Made by a program: the position numbers and the translations under genes
Notes under the pieces: model-generated
What the model saw: only the letters and a program-made list of their open reading frames with translations
What the model was told of the DNA's origin: nothing
Database searches by the model: none
Shown here: in pieces, positions 4,635 through 35,855 of the stretch
Position numbering within the stretch: position 1 is the stretch's first letter
Layout of the letters: each line of letters opens with the position of its first letter
Source of the DNA: Escherichia phage vB_EcoM_G2248
Sequence record: MK327932.1
Reading direction: 5' to 3' (one strand)
Length of the DNA: 64,000 nt

Positions 4635-5129
4635 TTATTTTACCAGTTCTGCTAATTCTTTTTCTTTAGCTTCTAGTTCAGCTTTAAGCTGTTTAATCTC
4701 TTGTCGCTTCTTATTAGCGGCTTCTTGCTTACTATTTCGGATAACCTGATCTAGATACAACTCCCAATCCTGAATATTTTTGATAATGTAACCGTCAACA
4801 TTAATTGGTCGGAGATTCAGTACAGCTTCCAGTTTAGTTGCAAAAACTTTAATTGCTGGTGTGAAGTATTCATATTCGTTATCTTCAAACCAATAACCTA
4901 GACTTGCATTCTCAATACGAAGATGAAGTTTAAGATCAAGGTCTTTATCATCGGTATATAGGTCTTTTACACACCCAATAGAATTAACAACAACTTTAAA
5001 ACGAATTTTATCTACACCACCAAACACATCTTCAAGAATATCAGCAATTGAGCTATTAGCGCAAGATTGGTCGCTGAATGCGTCAAGGTTTTCTTTAGTT
5101 ACAGTATACCAAACATCTTGTACCCACAT
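4635..5129 (-). CDS. hypothetical protein with C-terminal coiled coil
   Basis: ATG at 5129 preceded by the conserved RBS module GAGGATTATATTATG. Confidence 0.55.
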   Translation of the reverse strand: MWVQDVWYTVTKENLDAFSDQSCANSSIADILEDVFGGVDKIRFKVVVNSIGCVKDLYTDDKDLDLKLHLRIENASLGYWFEDNEYEYFTPAIKVFATKLEAVLNLRPINVDGYIIKNIQDWELYLDQVIRNSKQEAANKKRQEIKQLKAELEAKEKELAELVK

Positions 5130-5152
5130 AATATAATCCTCTCGTTGTTAAG

Positions 5153-5187
5153 TGGGAGTATTATAGCATACTCCCTTCGCATGTCAA
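5153..5187 (-). promoter_or_regulatory. PeSL-like early promoter with palindrome GGGAGTATGCTATAATACTCCC
   Basis: TTGACA at 5187..5182, TATAAT at 5165..5160; the palindrome spans the -10. Confidence 0.55.
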
Positions 5188-6362
5188 GCACTAACTTTTT
5201 TCTTTACTGCTTTCACCTTCTGGCGAATTGCTCGAATCTCTTCGATCTCTTTTTCAGTCTCTTTAACAATTTCTTTGCGATTCTGAATATCTGTATCTAG
5301 ATTATCATCAAGTTTAGGCAGCATGTCAATCAAGAACTTTTTAAAGTCTTTCAGGTTTCGGATAACAGCACCTTCACCCATTACCGCCACGCCTACACCA
5401 TCCGGCAGGTCGCCAAACAGTTTAACCAGTTCAGACAGATGATCATGATCTTCTAGTGCTTCTTCCGGTTCAGATGGCAGTTCCACAAAGTAATAACGTT
5501 CATCATTGCTGATCAGGTGATACCAGCAAAGCCCAAAAGATTTAGGAGTATATTCTACACCACCAACTTCAACTGCGTCAACACTTCCGAAAGAATCTAC
5601 TTTAGTTACCTTAAATCCATGTTCCAGCGTTTTAATAATTTCAATAACATGACTGGATACGGTTTCAGTATTAAACCAATGAGGCAAATTATGTGGATTT
5701 GGCTTGTATCGTTCGCCTACTTTAAATCTCTGACCACGCTCTTGCATACGGACATATTCAACTCGCGTGATTTCCGCGAAGTATTCAAATTCGCCACCGT
5801 CAAACACAGAAGCCCATTGATCACAAAAACGATCTGCCTTAACAGTTTCACCTTTCGCGGTGATCATGGTAGCTGATCCGTGCAATTCTTCTTCAACTAA
5901 AAAGCCATATTCGACAAAATCAACAAGTTTCATAGCTTCTTTGTGATCTGGATCATGCTCTCCCCAGAATCGCTTAAATTCTTGCAAACCTTCTGGGGTA
6001 AACGAATAACATTTACCTTTTTCAAAGTAAGTCGGCATTGCATCCTCTTTCTTGTTCATCGCTTCGTATGCCTCTTTTGAGATGCGTTTAAAGTATTTAC
6101 GCTCATTGTGCATAATCATAGTAGCCCAATAATCAACAATATCATTAGCGGAATAAACTACATCTCCAGCTTCAATAGTAATAACATGACCGTGGTCATC
6201 TTTTTCTAATACTTTAAAGCCCTTTTCTACGATTTCAGCAACACGAATATGACCACGGCGCGAAGCATCGGTCAGAATAATTGAATAGCGAGAAAAGTCT
6301 AGAAACTCATCTTTACCGCCTTCACGGAATGCATAGCAATGACCTTCAAAGAATTTAGCCAT
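5184..6362 (-). CDS. hypothetical protein with repeated ~65-aa domain (member of tandem paralog family)
   Basis: 392 aa; internal repeats share GF(K/L)V and NERKYFKRI motifs with the two following genes. Confidence 0.6.
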   Translation of the reverse strand: MAKFFEGHCYAFREGGKDEFLDFSRYSIILTDASRRGHIRVAEIVEKGFKVLEKDDHGHVITIEAGDVVYSANDIVDYWATMIMHNERKYFKRISKEAYEAMNKKEDAMPTYFEKGKCYSFTPEGLQEFKRFWGEHDPDHKEAMKLVDFVEYGFLVEEELHGSATMITAKGETVKADRFCDQWASVFDGGEFEYFAEITRVEYVRMQERGQRFKVGERYKPNPHNLPHWFNTETVSSHVIEIIKTLEHGFKVTKVDSFGSVDAVEVGGVEYTPKSFGLCWYHLISNDERYYFVELPSEPEEALEDHDHLSELVKLFGDLPDGVGVAVMGEGAVIRNLKDFKKFLIDMLPKLDDNLDTDIQNRKEIVKETEKEIEEIRAIRQKVKAVKKKVSA

Positions 6363-31179: not shown

Positions 31180-31836
31180 TTAAATGTTCGCGAGAATCGC
31201 GCTTTCAAATTCTTCTAATGTACCATTATTTATGATAATGGTTTCACCGTCAATAGGCAAAATTCCTTTTTCGGTGGAGTGAGTCGATACAATACCAGTA
31301 TCACGCTGAATATGCAACACCTTAGCACCCATAGCACGCATGAGAGCAATTTCAATAGGCTGACGCACATCAACCACTACAAAATACCCTTCTTCATTTT
31401 TGCGCTTCATAAACTCATTCACGAAGAGATTACACCAATAAAGCGGATTGATCAAGTTAACCATTATATCAGTACCGAGAGTGGTTAACATGAGACGAAT
31501 AGACCAGACGTTATTATGTTTTTCGCCGATCTCATTAACGACCTTGTAAATCTCAGCCAGACGATCACAAGTAAAGGAACTACCGCCATACTTCGAATCT
31601 AGCATAAGCAGACACTGAATAAACCACTTATGCGCGGTATAGGTATCAATACCTAGATCGGCTTCTCTGTCACGCCCTAACCCGTCAAAGTCAAGATAAG
31701 TCAGACCTAAGTCTGGTTGACATTCGCATAAGATTTCTTTGATCGGTGCTGCCAGTTGATAACTGTGTCCATCAATGATTAACGCGGCAGTATCTTTTCC
31801 TACTCGCTTTTTACCACAAAGTGCAATCAATTTCAT
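31180..31836 (-). CDS. 1: deoxynucleoside monophosphate kinase
   Basis: P-loop LCGKKRVGKDT and overall resemblance to T4 gp1. Confidence 0.85.
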   Translation of the reverse strand: MKLIALCGKKRVGKDTAALIIDGHSYQLAAPIKEILCECQPDLGLTYLDFDGLGRDREADLGIDTYTAHKWFIQCLLMLDSKYGGSSFTCDRLAEIYKVVNEIGEKHNNVWSIRLMLTTLGTDIMVNLINPLYWCNLFVNEFMKRKNEEGYFVVVDVRQPIEIALMRAMGAKVLHIQRDTGIVSTHSTEKGILPIDGETIIINNGTLEEFESAILANI

Positions 31837-31851
31837 TATATAAGCCTCTTA

Positions 31852-32442
31852 TTACTTTCTAAAAGCAGGGTGCATAGCTTTAATACCTTCCACCCTCTGA
31901 CGATCCGCCGCCTGAATTGCTGGGCGAGGAACGATCAGTTGACCATCACGTTCAATGCTCATTGTTTTAAAGGGAAGAATTGCAGTACACACCAGAGATT
32001 CATGCATATCATCGGTGTATGTTAACTCAAGTTCCCCCAATTGTGAACACCAACAACCATAAAAGTTAAAAGTGCACACAATGTTACGTCGTTCGTTGTC
32101 CATCATGTGAACTTGAACGGCTTCCGGCATTGAATCCTTCCACGCGGTGGAGTTACCGTTATTGTAGTCTACTATAGAAAGCATCCATGTGTAAAGGTTT
32201 AGATAGCTTTCCAAATGCTCATCGACAATAAACCGGACTACCAACGGGTCAAACTCCACATGACTAGACGGATAATCAGCGACCGCCAAACCATATTGAC
32301 CAGCAACTTGCTTAGTCGGTGGAATGGTTATAGCCGGAAGTGTAACACCTTGAGCATTTAAAGTAAAGCCTTTTGTTAGTTGTCCATCTGGAATATTGAT
32401 CTGCCAGTTGCTGGGGTTAGCATAGTTAAAGAGATTAGACAT
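31852..32442 (-). CDS. 3: tail completion/sheath stabilizer protein gp3 (assigned by position)
   Basis: 196-aa ORF upstream of gene 1, the T4 position of gene 3; RBS GAGGAA. Confidence 0.5.
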   Translation of the reverse strand: MSNLFNYANPSNWQINIPDGQLTKGFTLNAQGVTLPAITIPPTKQVAGQYGLAVADYPSSHVEFDPLVVRFIVDEHLESYLNLYTWMLSIVDYNNGNSTAWKDSMPEAVQVHMMDNERRNIVCTFNFYGCWCSQLGELELTYTDDMHESLVCTAILPFKTMSIERDGQLIVPRPAIQAADRQRVEGIKAMHPAFRK

Positions 32443-32463
32443 TACTGATTCCTCAAATGAAAA

Positions 32464-32471
32464 TATTTATT
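32464..32471 (-). promoter_or_regulatory. possible late promoter variant AATAAATA upstream of gene 3
   Basis: One mismatch from TATAAATA, about 25 nt upstream of ATG 32442. Confidence 0.3.
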
Positions 32472-32631
32472 AACAATTGTCGCTTTGCGACGTGCCGGAG
32501 GCACTGACTACTTTTTAACCGAAACAAATTTTTATTATTCTAAAGATCTTTCTTCGTTTTGGTTATGTTTTAACCAATAACTATATTTTTATACAGTAAT
32601 AAATAAAACGGGTACTATACGAGGACTTCTT

Positions 32632-32886
32632 ATGACAGAAGACATTTTGTTAAAACTCTATGATCGTCTGGATAACGAATTAGCAACATTGCGGGGTGAA
32701 GTTCTCTATTTGTCTAAATGCAATACAGATCTGCTTAAGCAGATTGCAGAAAGGGATGACCAAATAAAATCCCTTTCAGGTGCATTACGTGATCGCGACA
32801 AAGCATTAGAGATTTTACAGCGTGTTACCAATAAGGAAGAATTAAAAGACTTCTTACATGGTTATGCTCATGCCATCGATCTATAA
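32632..32886 (+). CDS. small coiled-coil protein, antisense to the flanking genes
   Basis: 84-aa ORF with RBS GAGGA before ATG 32632; ends at a terminator. Confidence 0.45.
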   Translation: MTEDILLKLYDRLDNELATLRGEVLYLSKCNTDLLKQIAERDDQIKSLSGALRDRDKALEILQRVTNKEELKDFLHGYAHAIDL

Positions 32887-32919
32887 TAAAAAAGCCCGTC
32901 AATGACGGGCTTAATTTTT
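32886..32919. terminator. bidirectional rho-independent terminator
   Basis: Hairpin GCCCGTCAATGACGGGC flanked by an A-run and a T-run. Confidence 0.65.
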
Positions 32920-33946
32920 AATATGTATCAGCTAATTTAATTATGTTATCAAGTTCCGTTATTGGTAAAGTTTCTGTGTATCCATCTTTCAACATAGATT
33001 TATCAACAACGCCACATTGATAAGTTCTCTTTATTTCCTTTTCAAGTTCCCACGGAATCCAGCCATCAACACTTTGTTTGACGTAAACAAGTTTATGAAC
33101 AAACTTAGATTTCTGCATATGTTGTTTCATTCTGGTTTCCGGTAATTCATTGGTTACACCAAACTTTATAAATTTATCATCTAACGTCTGGATATAAAAA
33201 TATCCTATCTCAGATGGACGATAGCCAGAAGAACTACATTTCGGACACCCTTTAGCATTTCTGCTGAACGTACAATATCTTACGGAAAATTCGGCGTCAT
33301 GTTTTGTACATTTAAGTTTTATCCATGAATTTGCAGTACCTATCCATTCACCATCGACACCTATATATTCATACCCTAACTTTTTACATTTATCTTCTAT
33401 TCTAGATAGTGCATCTTCTACGGGAACGACATATTCCGTCTTAAATTGTTCAGCCGCACATTTCTTACAACCACATGTACCATGATTTTTAAAATCAAAG
33501 AACTTTGTATTCTTCCAAATATGGTCATGTTTCTTGCATCTAAGAATAATCTTAGTAATTTGTGATTTCCAGCCACCAACAAATCCCAAAAATTCATAAT
33601 CAAGATCTTTACATTTTTCTTCAATGAATTTGGTTGCTTCCTCTTCTGTCATAACTCCCCTACATTGAGGACAACCAACAATAACCTTTTTAGCATAGAA
33701 ACTATTACTGGAAACATCATAGACAGATCCATGCTTATTGCATTGGATAACAGATCTAGTCAATTTTCCTTTCCATTCTCCAGAAAATCCTAAGAATGTA
33801 TGGTCGACAAGTTTACACCTTTCAATAACTTTATCCGCAAATTCTCTAGGAGATTTTGTTACTTTGTTTACTCTGTATTCTATTTCTTCCGGTTGACGAA
33901 GATAATAAACGTGGGGATTGCTCCCCACGGAATTAATATTAAGCAT
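32918..33946 (-). CDS. putative GIY-YIG-like nuclease with three N-terminal zinc-ribbon repeats (candidate homing endonuclease)
   Basis: Three ~45-aa repeats each ending in a CxxC-type motif (CPQCRG, CGCKKC, CPKCSS); C-terminal GYFYIQTL...FIKFGVT...R...H; ATG 33946 with RBS AAGGAAGG. Confidence 0.4.
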   Translation of the reverse strand: MLNINSVGSNPHVYYLRQPEEIEYRVNKVTKSPREFADKVIERCKLVDHTFLGFSGEWKGKLTRSVIQCNKHGSVYDVSSNSFYAKKVIVGCPQCRGVMTEEEATKFIEEKCKDLDYEFLGFVGGWKSQITKIILRCKKHDHIWKNTKFFDFKNHGTCGCKKCAAEQFKTEYVVPVEDALSRIEDKCKKLGYEYIGVDGEWIGTANSWIKLKCTKHDAEFSVRYCTFSRNAKGCPKCSSSGYRPSEIGYFYIQTLDDKFIKFGVTNELPETRMKQHMQKSKFVHKLVYVKQSVDGWIPWELEKEIKRTYQCGVVDKSMLKDGYTETLPITELDNIIKLADTY

Positions 33947-34760
33947 CCTTCCACACCTTCCTTGCATCATAGTTTTTACCTTTAGAAACAAATTTATATG
34001 TGTTAAGGTAGATAATATTGCTCCAGTCTTTCGGGCTAATCTCAACAAGTTTTGTTTTAATGTGTCCCGGTAGATATGCTTTGATCATGTGATCACTTCC
34101 ACGCATACCTTTTACATCGCTCCATTTGATTTTTAAGCGTGTTTTATTGCTCAAGGTAGGAGTAGATGCATATTGCTTTAAAAGTGCCTCTAAAAACTGC
34201 TGACGGGCTTTAGGAGTTACATAGTGTAAGTTAAGACCCAGCATCACAGTATTACCCGCCTTTGTCTTAGAATCACCCAGACAAATGATCAGCGGGAAAA
34301 CATCCCAATATGGCAAAGTGTCTTTATACTTAGCATCATACATAAAGGTATAGATTCGCCCTACTTGCGGTTTTACAATCTGGTGTCCCTTTATTCCAGC
34401 TTTTATTGTTTTAGTAAACCACTCCTGTGATTTTTCTTTAGGACGACTCTTTGATACAGCACGCATAGACGCACGAAAATCATTAATCATCATCATTGCG
34501 CGTTGCTGCTTATTGAGACCCTTTGCGCCTTTCCCTTTTAGTTTTTCAACTTCTATTGCTGTTTTAATTTCGCTGGCATAACGAGACATACTTTTAGTGA
34601 AAGTCGCATAGGCTATTCCCTTAGAATCTGCAAATGCTTTAGCTGTCATGCCTTTGGCTTTTGCTTTCGCAAATTCTACACCCAATTCGACCCACTGTTT
34701 AGACTTTCTTTTTTGGGGAGACGGCTTTTCGTCTTCTGTGATTATTTCAAATACGCTCAT
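33939..34760 (-). CDS. 2: DNA end protector protein gp2
   Basis: 273-aa basic protein at the T4 gene 2 position upstream of gene 4. Confidence 0.65.
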   Translation of the reverse strand: MSVFEIITEDEKPSPQKRKSKQWVELGVEFAKAKAKGMTAKAFADSKGIAYATFTKSMSRYASEIKTAIEVEKLKGKGAKGLNKQQRAMMMINDFRASMRAVSKSRPKEKSQEWFTKTIKAGIKGHQIVKPQVGRIYTFMYDAKYKDTLPYWDVFPLIICLGDSKTKAGNTVMLGLNLHYVTPKARQQFLEALLKQYASTPTLSNKTRLKIKWSDVKGMRGSDHMIKAYLPGHIKTKLVEISPKDWSNIIYLNTYKFVSKGKNYDARKVWKDA

Positions 34761-34771
34761 AATATTATCCT

Positions 34772-35245
34772 CTATTTGTTAAGCCCTTTAAAGCCAAACA
34801 CTTTCTTTAATGCATGTTCGGTGATGATCTTAAACTCCATGTTATGCTTTTGGCATAATTTCACGGCAGCTAACCATTTTTCAGTATTTTTTGTGTATGT
34901 CCATACTTCATGCATATATCGTTGCTTTGTCTTCGCGGTCATTCTTTTTGGCTTTTCCGGTGGCCTTGTCTCTTTAGCTGGTTTAACTTCCCATAAATGC
35001 TCCTTGCCATCATCAAACTTAACGTAAAAATCCATAAAGTATCTGTGTCTTTTTCCGTCTGTTGATGACTCATAAGGAATTACTACGGTCTCAGATCCCC
35101 ATTTTGCAACTCTAGGATTGCGGTCTAGCCACTGCATGATCCATCTTTCCCAGCTTGAACGGTATGTGATCTTACGTATATCCCCTTTATACTTTTCCTT
35201 ATTCTCAGGAACATACTTGCCCTTATAAGTGTTAGATCCTCCCAT
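34772..35245 (-). CDS. 4: head completion protein gp4
   Basis: 157 aa, divergently arranged next to gene 53 as in T4. Confidence 0.7.
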   Translation of the reverse strand: MGGSNTYKGKYVPENKEKYKGDIRKITYRSSWERWIMQWLDRNPRVAKWGSETVVIPYESSTDGKRHRYFMDFYVKFDDGKEHLWEVKPAKETRPPEKPKRMTAKTKQRYMHEVWTYTKNTEKWLAAVKLCQKHNMEFKIITEHALKKVFGFKGLNK

Positions 35246-35260
35246 TTTAGCACCCTTTAT

Positions 35261-35268
35261 TATAAATA
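35261..35268 (+). promoter_or_regulatory. late promoter TATAAATA for gene 53
   Basis: Exact TATAAATA about 33 nt upstream of ATG 35301. Confidence 0.6.
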
Positions 35269-35276
35269 CATAATAC

Positions 35277-35284
35277 TATTTATC
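35277..35284 (-). promoter_or_regulatory. probable late promoter GATAAATA for genes 4 and 2
   Basis: One mismatch from TATAAATA, about 32 nt upstream of ATG 35245. Confidence 0.35.
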
Positions 35285-35300
35285 AATTGAGGGTGCTAAA

Positions 35301-35855
35301 ATGCTCTTTTCTTTCTTCCCTGCCATTGAATACAACGGCAAGATGATTACTGACATTGTGCGCAATTACCGCGCATATTTCAACGCAATAATTTCTGATT
35401 ATAACATACAAACATATTACATTCAAGGTAGTCCACGACCGGAACAAGTTGCATATGAAGTATACGGAAACCAACAACTTTATTGGATCTTGCTGATGCT
35501 TAATGACGTATACGATCCGTTCCATGACTGGATCACCGATCAAGAGACAGCATATGAATCAGCCGAACAACGATATGCAAACGTAGGAGGAAATCAAGTA
35601 TTATACCACGTTGATATTGACGGAAACAAGTATTGGAATCTTACCGAATATCCGAAAGGATCAAGCAATTGGTATGATAAAGGGGATATTCATCACCGTT
35701 ATTTGCAGTTTCAGGGTGCATTATCGGCAGTAGACACACTGGAAGATGCGATCCTCCGTAATGAGGAACGACGCAAGATCAAGATCATAGATCCTACACA
35801 AATTAAACAATTTATTAACGCATTCATTCGAGAAATGGAAAAGGCTGATGTGTAA
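35301..35855 (+). CDS. 53: baseplate wedge protein gp53
   Basis: 184 aa, immediately upstream of gene 5 as in T4. Confidence 0.7.
   Translation: MLFSFFPAIEYNGKMITDIVRNYRAYFNAIISDYNIQTYYIQGSPRPEQVAYEVYGNQQLYWILLMLNDVYDPFHDWITDQETAYESAEQRYANVGGNQVLYHVDIDGNKYWNLTEYPKGSSNWYDKGDIHHRYLQFQGALSAVDTLEDAILRNEERRKIKIIDPTQIKQFINAFIREMEKADV

Follow-up and report, generated by a model that had tools for sequence, protein, structure and literature searches.

In T4 the genes for the tail completion protein or sheath stabiliser (gene 3) and for the DNA end protector (gene 2) are separated by 106 bp, whereas they lie ~1.5 kb apart in the 64-kb stretch of phage DNA analysed here (the window), whose source is a Krischvirus, i.e., an RB49-like T4-type coliphage. 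A preliminary description had correctly recognized this separation and had read the whole interval as one insertion. What does the interval contain, and does it bring a different kind of element to these phages, as that description also suggested? Compared with sister phages, only 1,022 bp are inserted, while the 84-aa ORF and the intergenic DNA making up the remainder are found in every Krischvirus record. The interval is therefore composed of two unrelated things, namely a putative homing endonuclease ORF (hereafter HEG) with its cassette and a resident 84-aa ORF (Table 1). The cassette is probably, judging from sequence comparison, a free-standing HEG of the T5orf172 class, with the gene 2 stop codon on one side of it and a bidirectional terminator on the other.

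Table 1. Features of the gene 3/gene 2 region, in window coordinates
Feature	Position	Strand	Basis and remarks
Gene 3 (tail completion/sheath stabiliser)	31852..32442	minus	Pfam Phage_T4_gp19, PHROG 45, annotations in relatives
84-aa heptad-repeat (coiled-coil-like) ORF	32632..32886	plus	= RB49 ORF130; PHROG 17832 (E 2e-57), function unknown
Bidirectional intrinsic terminator	32892..32912		scan of both strands; common to the 84-aa ORF (plus) and the HEG (minus)
HEG cassette (true insertion)	32916..33937		1,022 bp, present or absent among Krischviruses
Putative homing endonuclease ORF, 342 aa	32918..33946	minus	ORF list; PHROG 681 'endonuclease' (E 1.2e-78); Pfam CapR PF21817 (E 3.1e-15)
T5orf172-like (GIY-YIG superfamily) nuclease domain	32921..33205	minus	aa 248-342
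Zinc-finger repeat 3	33227..33412	minus	aa 179-240; C187, C213xxH216, C234xxC237
Zinc-finger repeat 2	33449..33637	minus	aa 104-166; C112, C137xxH140, C160xxC163; best CapR stretch aa 108-161
Zinc-finger repeat 1	33653..33841	minus	aa 36-98; C44, C69xxH72, C92xxC95
GC-rich hairpin	33910..33929	minus	CGUGGGGA-GCAA-UCCCCACG, then UUUAUUAUCU; within HEG codons 6-12, 10 nt past the gene 2 stop
Tract of HEG-linked substitutions	33938..34008	minus	last ~24 codons of gene 2
Gene 2 (DNA end protector)	33939..34760	minus	PHROG 429 (E 2.7e-71), annotations in relatives; 3' end adjoins the cassette
Shine-Dalgarno-like GGAAGGUG	33954..33961	minus	9 nt upstream of the HEG ATG; read from the sequence, function presumed

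The borders of the insertion come from the full alignment of 13 loci (6 with the HEG and 7 without it). The identical 1,022-bp segment is absent in 7/7 of the insert-less phages aligned, and this indel is the difference between genomes that are otherwise 97-99% identical. In the RB49 alignment, for instance, window positions 31300-32915 correspond to RB49 1-1616 and positions 33927-35300 to RB49 1606-2979, the junction being ambiguous by ~5-10 bp due to a TTAAT microhomology at each end. The GC content of the cassette is 0.34 (0.40 for the window). Regarding its distribution, the HEG occupies the gene 2 site in 10 of the 58 Krischvirus records, which represent 8 distinct phages (~50 Krischviruses have been sequenced), and in one metagenomic contig. 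Most Krischviruses lack it, so that it is not a gene conserved in all relatives, and the large ORF can indeed be regarded as a variable, apparently mobile insert, in agreement with the mobile nature first proposed for it. Cognac and PHB13 carry a second, unrelated HEG 0.8 kb away.

The 84-aa ORF, on the other hand, is encoded in all 58 Krischvirus records, with 97.6-100% amino acid identity, and in no other phage record, and only seven clusters match it among 5.8 billion proteins. Moreover, a 67%-identical homologue is found between gene 3 and gene 2 in the HEG-less contigs L021 and L022. A conserved lineage-specific gene, kept at the same position even in such distant HEG-less relatives, does not belong to the insertion to which it had been ascribed; by its sequence distribution it is a resident gene of the Krischvirus lineage, unrelated to the mobile cassette. 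Neither is it antisense to the large ORF, since the two are convergent and do not overlap. Its coiled-coil character, by contrast, was borne out by an unbroken heptad pattern over residues 6-66 (matched by 9 of 5000 shuffles), and so was its ending at a bidirectional terminator, the hairpin at 32892-32912 being scored as a terminator on both strands. This hairpin is annotated on both strands in GEC-3S and Makalu_001, and in HEG-less phages it is the one that ends gene 2.

The HEG itself encodes 342 residues plus a stop codon (from 33946 to 32918), one fewer than initially counted, with an 8-nt overlap between its ATG and the gene 2 stop codon (ATGCTTAA). A longer ORF starting with TTG (34048, 376 aa) was rejected: its overlap with gene 2 would amount to 110 nt, the start annotated in relatives is an ATG at or near 33946, and the N-termini of the homologues align downstream of the TTG. 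Equivalents of the HEG are Phi1 ORF130.1 and ECD7 gp128, both annotated as 'endonuclease', and the near-identical genes in ECD7, Phi1 and Skers bear either that annotation or "putative GIY-YIG nuclease family protein"; the accessible part of Arbiol 2010 (PMC2839356) makes no mention of Phi1 ORF130.1. Relatives of the protein are encoded in 441 phage records, including those of T5 and a paralogue in RB49, while tblastn found no paralogue within the 64-kb window. NCBIfam holds no family for either the HEG or the 84-aa ORF.

Zinc-finger repeats precede the C-terminal domain of the protein. The Pfam CapR family (PF21817) matches it with 56.5 bits (cutoff 24.2), three stretches having E <= 1 and two of them E <= 0.01, and the match recurs in 23/23 of the aligned family members. 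All three repeats follow the pattern C-x24/25-CxxH-x17-19-CxxC, which provides two pairs of metal-ligand residues in each of them, and in the family alignment (23 sequences) C69, C92, C95 and C137 are invariant, whereas C160, C163, C234 and C237 are conserved in at least 90% of the members. In the AF2 model the repeats appear as alpha-beta-beta-beta-alpha units. Three tandem repeats ending in CxxC had been noticed from the start, and they stand (with C92xxC95, C160xxC163 and C234xxC237), although their length is ~68-75 aa instead of ~45 aa. When the model of the whole protein was compared with the PDB using Foldseek, all matches fell short of significance, including weak ones between the repeats and dsRBD-like structures (E 4.5e-3, probability 0.2). 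For CapR, zinc-dependent and sequence-specific DNA binding has been demonstrated by EMSA and Cys-to-Ser mutants (PMC8096241).

The C-terminal domain carries the GIY-YIG-like motif that had been pointed out, in the form Y251...K261-F-G263...R272...H276, the second Tyr of the canonical motif being replaced by K-F-G. Invariant in the family (23 sequences) are Y251, K261, G263, R272, E302, D321, G322, T324 and E325, among which Y251 (in strand 1), R272 (in helix 1) and E302 (in helix 2) would be the candidate catalytic residues, an equivalence drawn from sequence. E302 also falls opposite E180 of the ICP1 nuclease Odn in a weak profile alignment, and the E180A mutant of Odn loses cleavage in vitro (PMC8263062). 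As for the profile comparison, it gave a divided result: the window protein itself has no match at E <= 1 to Pfam T5orf172 (PF10544), MUG113 (PF13455) or GIY-YIG, but within the C-terminal domain 11 of the 23 family members match MUG113 (best 4.8e-7) and 7 of the 23 match T5orf172 (best 7.7e-7). The full-length homologues match the window protein with E 1e-36 to 1e-40, so its link to T5orf172/MUG113 runs through homologues that are ~30% identical. The AF2 model of the domain reaches a pLDDT of 96, and its predicted fold is GIY-YIG (a beta-beta-alpha-beta-alpha core). Searches beyond the family were negative: Foldseek against the PDB returned nothing significant for the nuclease domain (best GIY-YIG match, E 0.95), hhalign detected no similarity between the C-terminal profile and residues 1-97 of I-TevI, its catalytic domain (probability <1%), and the family profile found no relative with a solved structure among the PDB sequences. 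Altogether, the large ORF appears to be what had been supposed, a zinc-finger-repeat protein with a nuclease-like domain of the GIY-YIG superfamily at its C-terminus.

The comparison with the Phi1 allele reveals a mosaic. The window type and the Phi1/L020 type hardly differ in the leader, in repeat 1 and in the nuclease domain, and in the nuclease domain the low dN (0.009) relative to dS (0.098) indicates purifying selection. Repeat 2, in turn, shares only 62% amino acid identity with its Phi1 counterpart (dS ~3.1) and repeat 3 only 58% (dS ~1.1). Positive selection was considered as the cause of this divergence and rejected, given the saturated dS (1.1-3.1) and a dN/dS of ~0.1-0.3; these values imply that repeats 2 and 3 were replaced by a diverged module, that is, by their sequence, swapped as a module in the Phi1 allele.

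The other trace associated with the HEG lies outside the cassette, at the 3' end of gene 2. All 12 fixed differences between 6 phages with the HEG and 7 without it fall within positions 33938-34008 (20 differences when Phi1 is left out), and outside this tract there are 0-6 differences per 100 bp. At the protein level, gp2 has YMPTYQFMSKGKKYD in HEG-less phages, YLNTYKFVSKGKNYD in those carrying the HEG and FMPTFRFLSKGKNYD in Phi1 and L020. In addition, the HEG-less MIZ4/MIZ5 and kvi contain nested partial tracts of the HEG-associated type, as expected from gene-conversion tracts that would have ended before the HEG. The presence of the HEG does not follow the relatedness of the flanks: over 3 kb, the left flank of the window shows 7 differences to that of the HEG-less KFS-EC and 26-55 to those of other HEG-carrying phages (13 loci, a small sample). 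The tract may thus represent a co-conversion tract and/or a target allele resistant to cleavage, although the flank divergence could also have come about if a diverged allele of gene 2, linked by chance to the insert, had been acquired through ordinary recombination.

The same tract would contribute to the expression of the HEG. The Shine-Dalgarno-like GGAAGGUG arises from two HEG-linked codon changes in gene 2, both of them synonymous (AAA to AAG and GTT to GTG), the HEG-less version being GGAAAGUU, and positions 33954 and 33957 belong to the fixed differences. Just inside the HEG, the hairpin at 33910-33929 has a terminator-like score and a dG of -15.6 kcal/mol (-15.1 for the resident bidirectional terminator). 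Its stem is kept in all phages carrying the HEG, including Phi1, and in the metagenomic L020, whose loop differs, and its position relative to the gene 2 stop is that of the terminator in HEG-less phages. The hairpin may consequently act as a replacement terminator of gene 2 and/or as a brake on HEG expression. An Rfam scan of 32300-34100 gave no hit above the gathering score, the weak matches coming from the terminator hairpin.

How would such a cassette work? The protein is laid out as "beads on a string", with a short leader, three CapR-type CxxH...CxxC repeats that would read the DNA target and a C-terminal T5orf172/GIY-YIG-superfamily domain that would cut it, with R272 and E302 as putative catalytic residues. 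During a mixed infection, the enzyme would cut the genome lacking the HEG, either within the 3' end of gene 2 or close to it, and recombinational repair from the HEG-carrying genome would bring in the cassette along with more or less of the neighbouring gene 2 sequence. The HEG-carrying genome would itself be protected, both by the splitting of the site by the insertion and by the ~20 substitutions that gene 2 has in its final 70 bp. The cassette would also bring its own expression signals, in the form of a start codon overlapping the gene 2 stop and a Shine-Dalgarno-like sequence in the last gene 2 codons, while the hairpin in the first HEG codons would take over the position of the gene 2 terminator and hold HEG expression low. 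Such behaviour has precedents in SegF, SegG and I-TevI, where homing co-converts flanking markers and cleavage often takes place at some distance from the point of insertion. A further step, which we consider rather unlikely, would be to see here a self-contained plug-in with parts co-adapted to the landing site, the finger array being retargeted with its own flank and the hairpin being a substitute gene 2 terminator. Covariation is indeed seen between repeats 2-3 and the final 70 bp of gene 2, with one haplotype in the window and another in Phi1/L020. Were they co-adapted, the fingers would be retargeted through target tracking, self-avoidance or autoregulation, and if the hairpin does substitute the displaced terminator, a selfish gene would be repairing the transcription unit of its host and throttling its own expression.

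Do other functions fit the same protein? A retargeting of the fingers towards a competitor (a co-infecting phage, a satellite or a plasmid) would turn the protein into an interference or defence nuclease that spreads by this benefit, as in the case of Odn, whose T5orf172 domain has been retargeted to anti-satellite defence (PMC8263062), and the feasibility of retargeting is shown by the exchange of repeats 2-3 that distinguishes the Phi1 allele from that of the window. Nevertheless, the only HEG-linked sequence signal is the flank of its own insertion site, which is the signature of homing and not of an external target, and this makes the defensive role very unlikely; the two are also not mutually exclusive, since homing-type cleavage of HEG-less relatives is in itself interference. 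The protein might otherwise have been domesticated into a CapR-like, sequence-specific DNA-binding regulator (e.g., one acting on late transcription in the gene 2/gene 3 region) that neither cuts nor homes. CapR is itself a zinc-finger repressor that derives from a HEG (PMC8096241), I-TevI doubles as an autorepressor, as cited in PMC8096241, and the HEG sits at a junction rich in promoters and terminators. However, the full nuclease domain is kept under strong purifying selection, with R272 and E302 invariant, the absence of the HEG from most Krischviruses implies that it has no lineage-wide role, and its presence/absence, the flank tract and the incongruence of the flanks fit an active or recently active mobile gene, so that a regulator devoid of cleavage is very unlikely indeed.

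The mobility could also be independent of the protein, if the cassette were moved or lost by recombination between flanking stem-loops and short repeats, in a way similar to the shuffling by PeSL mini-circles put forward for the ORFans of RB49/Phi1. Two GC-rich hairpins, each of them followed by TTAAT, do bracket the insert (32892-32917 and 33910-33937), and stem-loop-flanked ORFan cassettes form mini-circles in RB49/Phi1, as described in the accessible part of Arbiol et al. 2010 (PMC2839356). The common repeat is, however, only ~5-9 bp long, and the two hairpins have different sequences, neither of them with the early-promoter part of a PeSL. There is also a double hairpin upstream of gene 3 (32479-32504), but it has no further copies in the window, which leaves a PeSL-like repeated cassette border unsupported here. 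Furthermore, the MIZ4 junction has the HEG-less bases at 33938 and 33942, unlike a simple TTAAT-to-TTAAT deletion, and the 70-bp tract of linked substitutions would be left unexplained, for all of which this route is very improbable.

The homing endonuclease reading also places the protein among known systems, and no new kind of element is revealed. Instead of the different kind of element first suspected, it is an ordinary representative of those T5orf172 homing endonucleases in which zinc fingers of the CapR/DUF723/DUF4379 type are repeated, a family already known from ICP1, from T5-like phages and from others (PMC8096241, PMC10448857); by sequence it has the architecture known from ICP1 and T5-like phages, its cleavage activity being putative. 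The ICP1 HEGs Gp121, Gp165 and Gp174 (Netter 2021, PMC8096241; Barth 2023, PMC10448857) similarly combine N-terminal repeated fingers of the CapR/DUF723/DUF4379 type with a C-terminal T5orf172 domain, are free-standing genes adjoining essential or structural genes and exchange DNA-binding modules between alleles (domain swapping, PMC10448857). The HEG of the window differs from those of ICP1, T5-like and Aeromonas phages in residing in a T4-type coliphage (Krischvirus), and from those of ICP1 in having a natural presence/absence polymorphism with a flank tract, and its direct sequence match to the ICP1 proteins is weak. Odn (Gp88, origin-directed nuclease; Barth 2021, PMC8263062), with Mg-dependent DNA endonuclease activity demonstrated in that study, likewise has a C-terminal T5orf172 domain and takes its specificity from a separate N-terminal DNA-binding module, but this module is a RepA_N domain without zinc-finger repeats, its target is the satellite origin and its role is defence and not homing. 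The capsid operon repressor CapR of PLE shares the zinc-finger family PF21817, although it is a 15.5-kDa single-domain repressor without nuclease, compared with three repeats plus a nuclease-like domain here, and its reported ligands are CxxC...CxC instead of CxxH...CxxC.

With T4 SegA-G and I-TevI, the HEG has in common the GIY-YIG fold superfamily, the free-standing location between conserved phage genes and the modular beads-on-a-string design. The domain order is reversed, as had been remarked, with the catalytic domain at the N-terminus in Seg/I-TevI and the nuclease-like domain at the C-terminus here, and Seg/I-TevI have the canonical GIY...YIG tyrosines (Y...KFG in the window HEG) and different DNA-binding modules. 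Membership of the canonical Seg/I-TevI group was rejected in view of the C-terminal position of the domain, the K-F-G, the lack of a Pfam GIY-YIG match and the hhalign result; T4 has no T5orf172 genes (PMC10448857). Closer relatives are an RB49 'endonuclease' (139420-140370) and the 'RB49ORF238c-like' protein of T5 (95798-96586), annotated as an endonuclease, with 29-35% identity over >90% of the length; they are found at other genomic sites, and their targets are presumably different.

This extends the T5orf172/CapR-finger HEG class, previously known mainly from ICP1, T5-like and Aeromonas phages, to a T4-type coliphage genus. To our knowledge, there has been little biochemistry on the T5orf172 family so far. 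The Krischviruses offer a natural test system in E. coli phages, with HEG-carrying, HEG-less and partial-tract recombinant genomes, all of them 97-99% identical, and two alleles with swapped finger modules. The predicted cleavage site would lie within gene 2, ~30-70 bp from its 3' end. Such a system could help to show how arrays of CapR-type fingers specify their targets.

The window locus is syntenic with those of RB49-like Krischvirus coliphages (Straboviridae) at 97-99% identity, the closest matches being FL37 and FL38 (98.9%), ELT3 (98.8%), ECD7 (98.3%) and Phi1 (92.8%). The preliminary description was correct in recognizing extra DNA between genes 3 and 2 relative to T4, in which only 106 bp separate them, and in regarding a large ORF as inserted there, but it extended the insertion to some 1.5 kb including a small 84-aa ORF. 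Of this stretch only the large ORF (the HEG) is an insertion, and the two ORFs are unrelated things: the DNA absent from RB49 and six other phages is, by alignment, exactly 1,022 bp (about 32916-33937, with a TTAAT microhomology at both junctions that blurs the limits slightly, by a few nucleotides), and these same phages keep both the 84-aa ORF and the intergenic DNA on the gene 3 side. Because it is kept in all Krischvirus records (58 of 58, 97.6-100% amino acid identity) and, as a 67%-identical homologue likewise placed between genes 3 and 2 and opposite to them in orientation, in more distant metagenomic relatives devoid of the large ORF, the 84-aa ORF is a resident lineage-specific gene, the equivalent of RB49 ORF130. 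It belongs to the function-unknown family PHROG 17832, with no match in phage records outside Krischvirus and only 7 matching clusters among 5.8 billion database proteins. The coiled-coil-type pattern ascribed to it stands, with a heptad register running uninterrupted from residue 6 to residue 66, hydrophobic residues at 14 of 18 a/d positions and a heptad score equalled in only 9 of 5000 shuffles, and so does the bidirectional terminator, a hairpin (32892-32912) 6 nt past its end that scores as intrinsic terminator on both strands. Both ORFs converge on this terminator with zero overlap, and the label "antisense" is therefore dropped. Further into the intergenic DNA, upstream of both gene 3 and the 84-aa ORF, two neighbouring short GC-rich hairpins (32479-32504; GTCGC-TTT-GCGAC and GTGCC-GGA-GGCAC) occur as a single copy in the window, one arm scoring as a weak minus-strand terminator; the FL37 annotation has a 31-aa ORF nearby.

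Features of the locus, of the large ORF product and of the second insert in related phages
Feature	Genome	Coordinates or residues	Strand	Family
Gene 1, dNMP kinase	window	31180-31836	minus	
Gene 3	window	31852-32442	minus	
84-aa ORF	window	32632-32886	plus	
Large ORF (HEG)	window	32918-33946	minus	
Repeat 1 of large ORF	window	C44/C69/H72/C92/C95		
Repeat 2 of large ORF	window	C112/C137/H140/C160/C163		
Repeat 3 of large ORF	window	C187/C213/H216/C234/C237		
Gene 2	window	33939-34760	minus	
Gene 4, head completion	window	34772-35245	minus	
Second HEG	Cognac (L007)	5087-6109	plus	PHROG 655
Second HEG	PHB13 (L018)	2449->3102		PHROG 655

The product of the large ORF, 342 aa long instead of 343, contains three clear internal repeats ending in CxxC as described, each of 68-75 aa rather than about 45 aa, with the pattern C-x24/25-CxxH-x17-19-CxxC. 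The Pfam CapR homology domain (PF21817) is matched over three stretches (56.5 bits vs a cutoff of 24.2) and DUF723 weakly, and the ORF falls into PHROG family 681, "endonuclease" (E 1e-78). CapR, from the Vibrio satellite PLE, is a zinc-finger repressor recognized as derived from the DNA-binding part of ICP1 homing endonucleases with a C-terminal T5orf172 domain (PMC8096241). In typical T5orf172 HEGs, repeated CapR/DUF723/DUF4379 zinc fingers precede the T5orf172 domain like beads on a string, modules are swapped among alleles, and T4 itself lacks T5orf172 genes (PMC10448857, Barth et al. 2023). The large ORF has exactly this architecture; Krischvirus is not mentioned in that study. ECD7, Phi1 and Skers have near-identical genes whose existing annotation is endonuclease. 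The supposed "different kind of mobile or DNA-targeting element" is a mobile endonuclease gene, albeit of an already described family. The original annotation of ICP1 (NC_015157) ORF130 (record 74753-75943) notes an "endonuclease" gene similar to RB49p240, and GenBank has therefore long held, implicitly, a connection between ICP1 and Krischvirus for this HEG family.

The assignment of the C-terminal domain to the T5orf172 branch of the GIY-YIG superfamily has good but not complete support. The window protein itself matches none of the Pfam T5orf172, MUG113 and GIY-YIG profiles even at E <= 1, but full-length homologues do match nuclease profiles, including Salmonella proteins named "GIY-YIG nuclease family protein" (E about 1e-36); among 23 aligned family members, 11 match MUG113 and 7 T5orf172. 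The C-terminal motif initially pointed out is present and holds residues invariant across the family (Y251, K261, G263, R272, E302, D321, G322, T324 and E325). For residues 240-342, AlphaFold gives a confident model (pLDDT 96.2, pTM 0.88) with a beta-beta-alpha-beta-alpha core. The domain profile aligns weakly, in consistent register, with ICP1 Odn, placing E302 opposite E180, whose mutation abolishes in vitro cleavage (PMC8263062). Two comparisons gave the assignment no support: Foldseek returned no significant match for the domain, and hhalign found no similarity to the I-TevI catalytic domain. The protein is not a Seg/I-TevI-type enzyme. Structurally, the preliminary description was largely right, apart from repeat length, the "antisense" label and the insertion extent.

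The HEG occupies its site in 10 of 58 Krischvirus records, representing 8 distinct phages (ELT3, FL37, FL38, Cognac, pEJ01, ECD7, Skers and Phi1), and a single metagenomic contig has it as well, a sporadic distribution. In a 13-genome alignment of phages with and without it (HEG+ and HEG-), the fixed differences (12 sites; 20 without Phi1) all lie within 33938-34008, a tract covering the final ~24 codons of gene 2, against a background of 0-6 differences per 100 bp and with zero fixed differences on the terminator side. These changes are mostly synonymous; at its C-terminus, gp2 has YMPTYQFMSKGKKYD in phages without the HEG, YLNTYKFVSKGKNYD in those with it and FMPTFRFLSKGKNYD in Phi1 and the metagenomic contig (L020). 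HEG-less MIZ4/MIZ5 and kvi carry nested portions of the HEG-linked tract (from 33954 and 33966 on, respectively), with HEG- bases at junction-proximal sites. A break inside the 3' end of gene 2 would lead to gene conversion, with the tract sometimes stopping short of the HEG, which would give this pattern; these partial tracts point to a probable cut site some 30-70 bp into gene 2. Nested HEG+ tracts with HEG- junction bases are not expected from a simple TTAAT-to-TTAAT deletion. PeSL-type stem-loop recombination (PMC2839356) could contribute to loss, but leaves both the flank tract and the MIZ4 junction unexplained. The cassette has a GC content of 0.34 vs 0.40 for the window, and the 3-kb left flank of the window differs at 7 sites from HEG-less KFS-EC and at 26-55 from other HEG+ phages. 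This pattern argues for a HEG that is mobile, now or formerly. That the gene is a domesticated CapR-like regulator is unlikely, given its intact nuclease domain under purifying selection and its sporadic distribution; an Odn-like defence nuclease is conceivable, but the sole linked sequence signal sits at the HEG's own insertion site.

A second, unrelated HEG, inserted between genes 2 and 4 in Cognac and PHB13 (1,126 bp, ~window 34775) and absent from the window, makes the region of genes 3, 2 and 4 a HEG hotspot; its 340-aa protein has no Pfam match and falls into PHROG 655, "homing endonuclease" (E 1.7e-15). In the right flank (~34050-35600; genes 2, 4 and 53, the 1.5 kb adjoining the tract on that side), ELT3 and Cognac show about 130 and 96 differences from all others, and the remaining phages 9-22; this may mark a further block of mosaicism or, in Cognac, reflect how the sequences align near its extra insert. 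The window gp4 (PHROG 218, head closure) matches the Pfam Tn7_TnsA-like_N endonuclease domain (E 4e-21), apparently a general property of T4-type gp4. In ECD7, a 6-bp ATTAAT duplication directly behind the HEG start codon (~window 33931; two additional residues) coincides with the TTAAT junction microhomology.

The alleles themselves are mosaic. Between the window and Phi1, leader, repeat 1 and nuclease domain are 91-98% identical (dS 0.05-0.32), whereas identity falls to 62% in repeat 2 (dS 3.1) and to 58% in repeat 3 (dS 1.1), dS being saturated and dN/dS about 0.1-0.3, which speaks against in-place positive selection. The divergence reflects a module swap, in agreement with the allele swapping in T5orf172 HEGs (Barth et al. 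2023). Since metagenomic allele P0002 (L020), at the same insertion site, pairs Phi1-like repeats with a Phi1-type gene 2 end, repeats 2-3 and the gene 2 flank appear to co-vary as two haplotypes, anecdotally, given the few independent genomes.

As for expression, the HEG start codon (ATG, 33946) and the stop codon of gene 2 overlap (ATGCTTAA), and two synonymous HEG-linked gene 2 changes turn GGAAAGUU into GGAAGGUG, 9 nt 5' of the ATG, a plausible candidate Shine-Dalgarno sequence. HEG codons 6-12 form a GC-rich hairpin (33910-33929; GCAA loop, U-rich tail), which scores as a terminator and is as stable as the resident one (-15.6 vs -15.1 kcal/mol), whose stem is kept in all HEG+ phages, whose position relative to the gene 2 stop is that of the resident terminator in HEG-less phages, and whose coding segment is missing from the N-terminus of non-Krischvirus homologues in the family alignment. 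We read the hairpin as a putative substitute terminator for gene 2 and a brake on HEG expression, which would fit the tight control known for T4 HEGs. The T4 late-promoter consensus is TATAAATA; on the minus strand, at CACATATAAATTTG (33995-34007, gene 2 codons T-Y-K-F-V), the HEG-linked allele creates TATAAATT, a 7/8 match some 50 nt 5' of the HEG start codon, missing in the HEG- allele (ACATATCAGTTTATG) and the Phi1 allele; the match could be chance in AT-rich DNA. The interest of the locus is modest, and lies mainly in offering a clean natural system in E. coli phages for T5orf172 homing and zinc-finger-array specificity.
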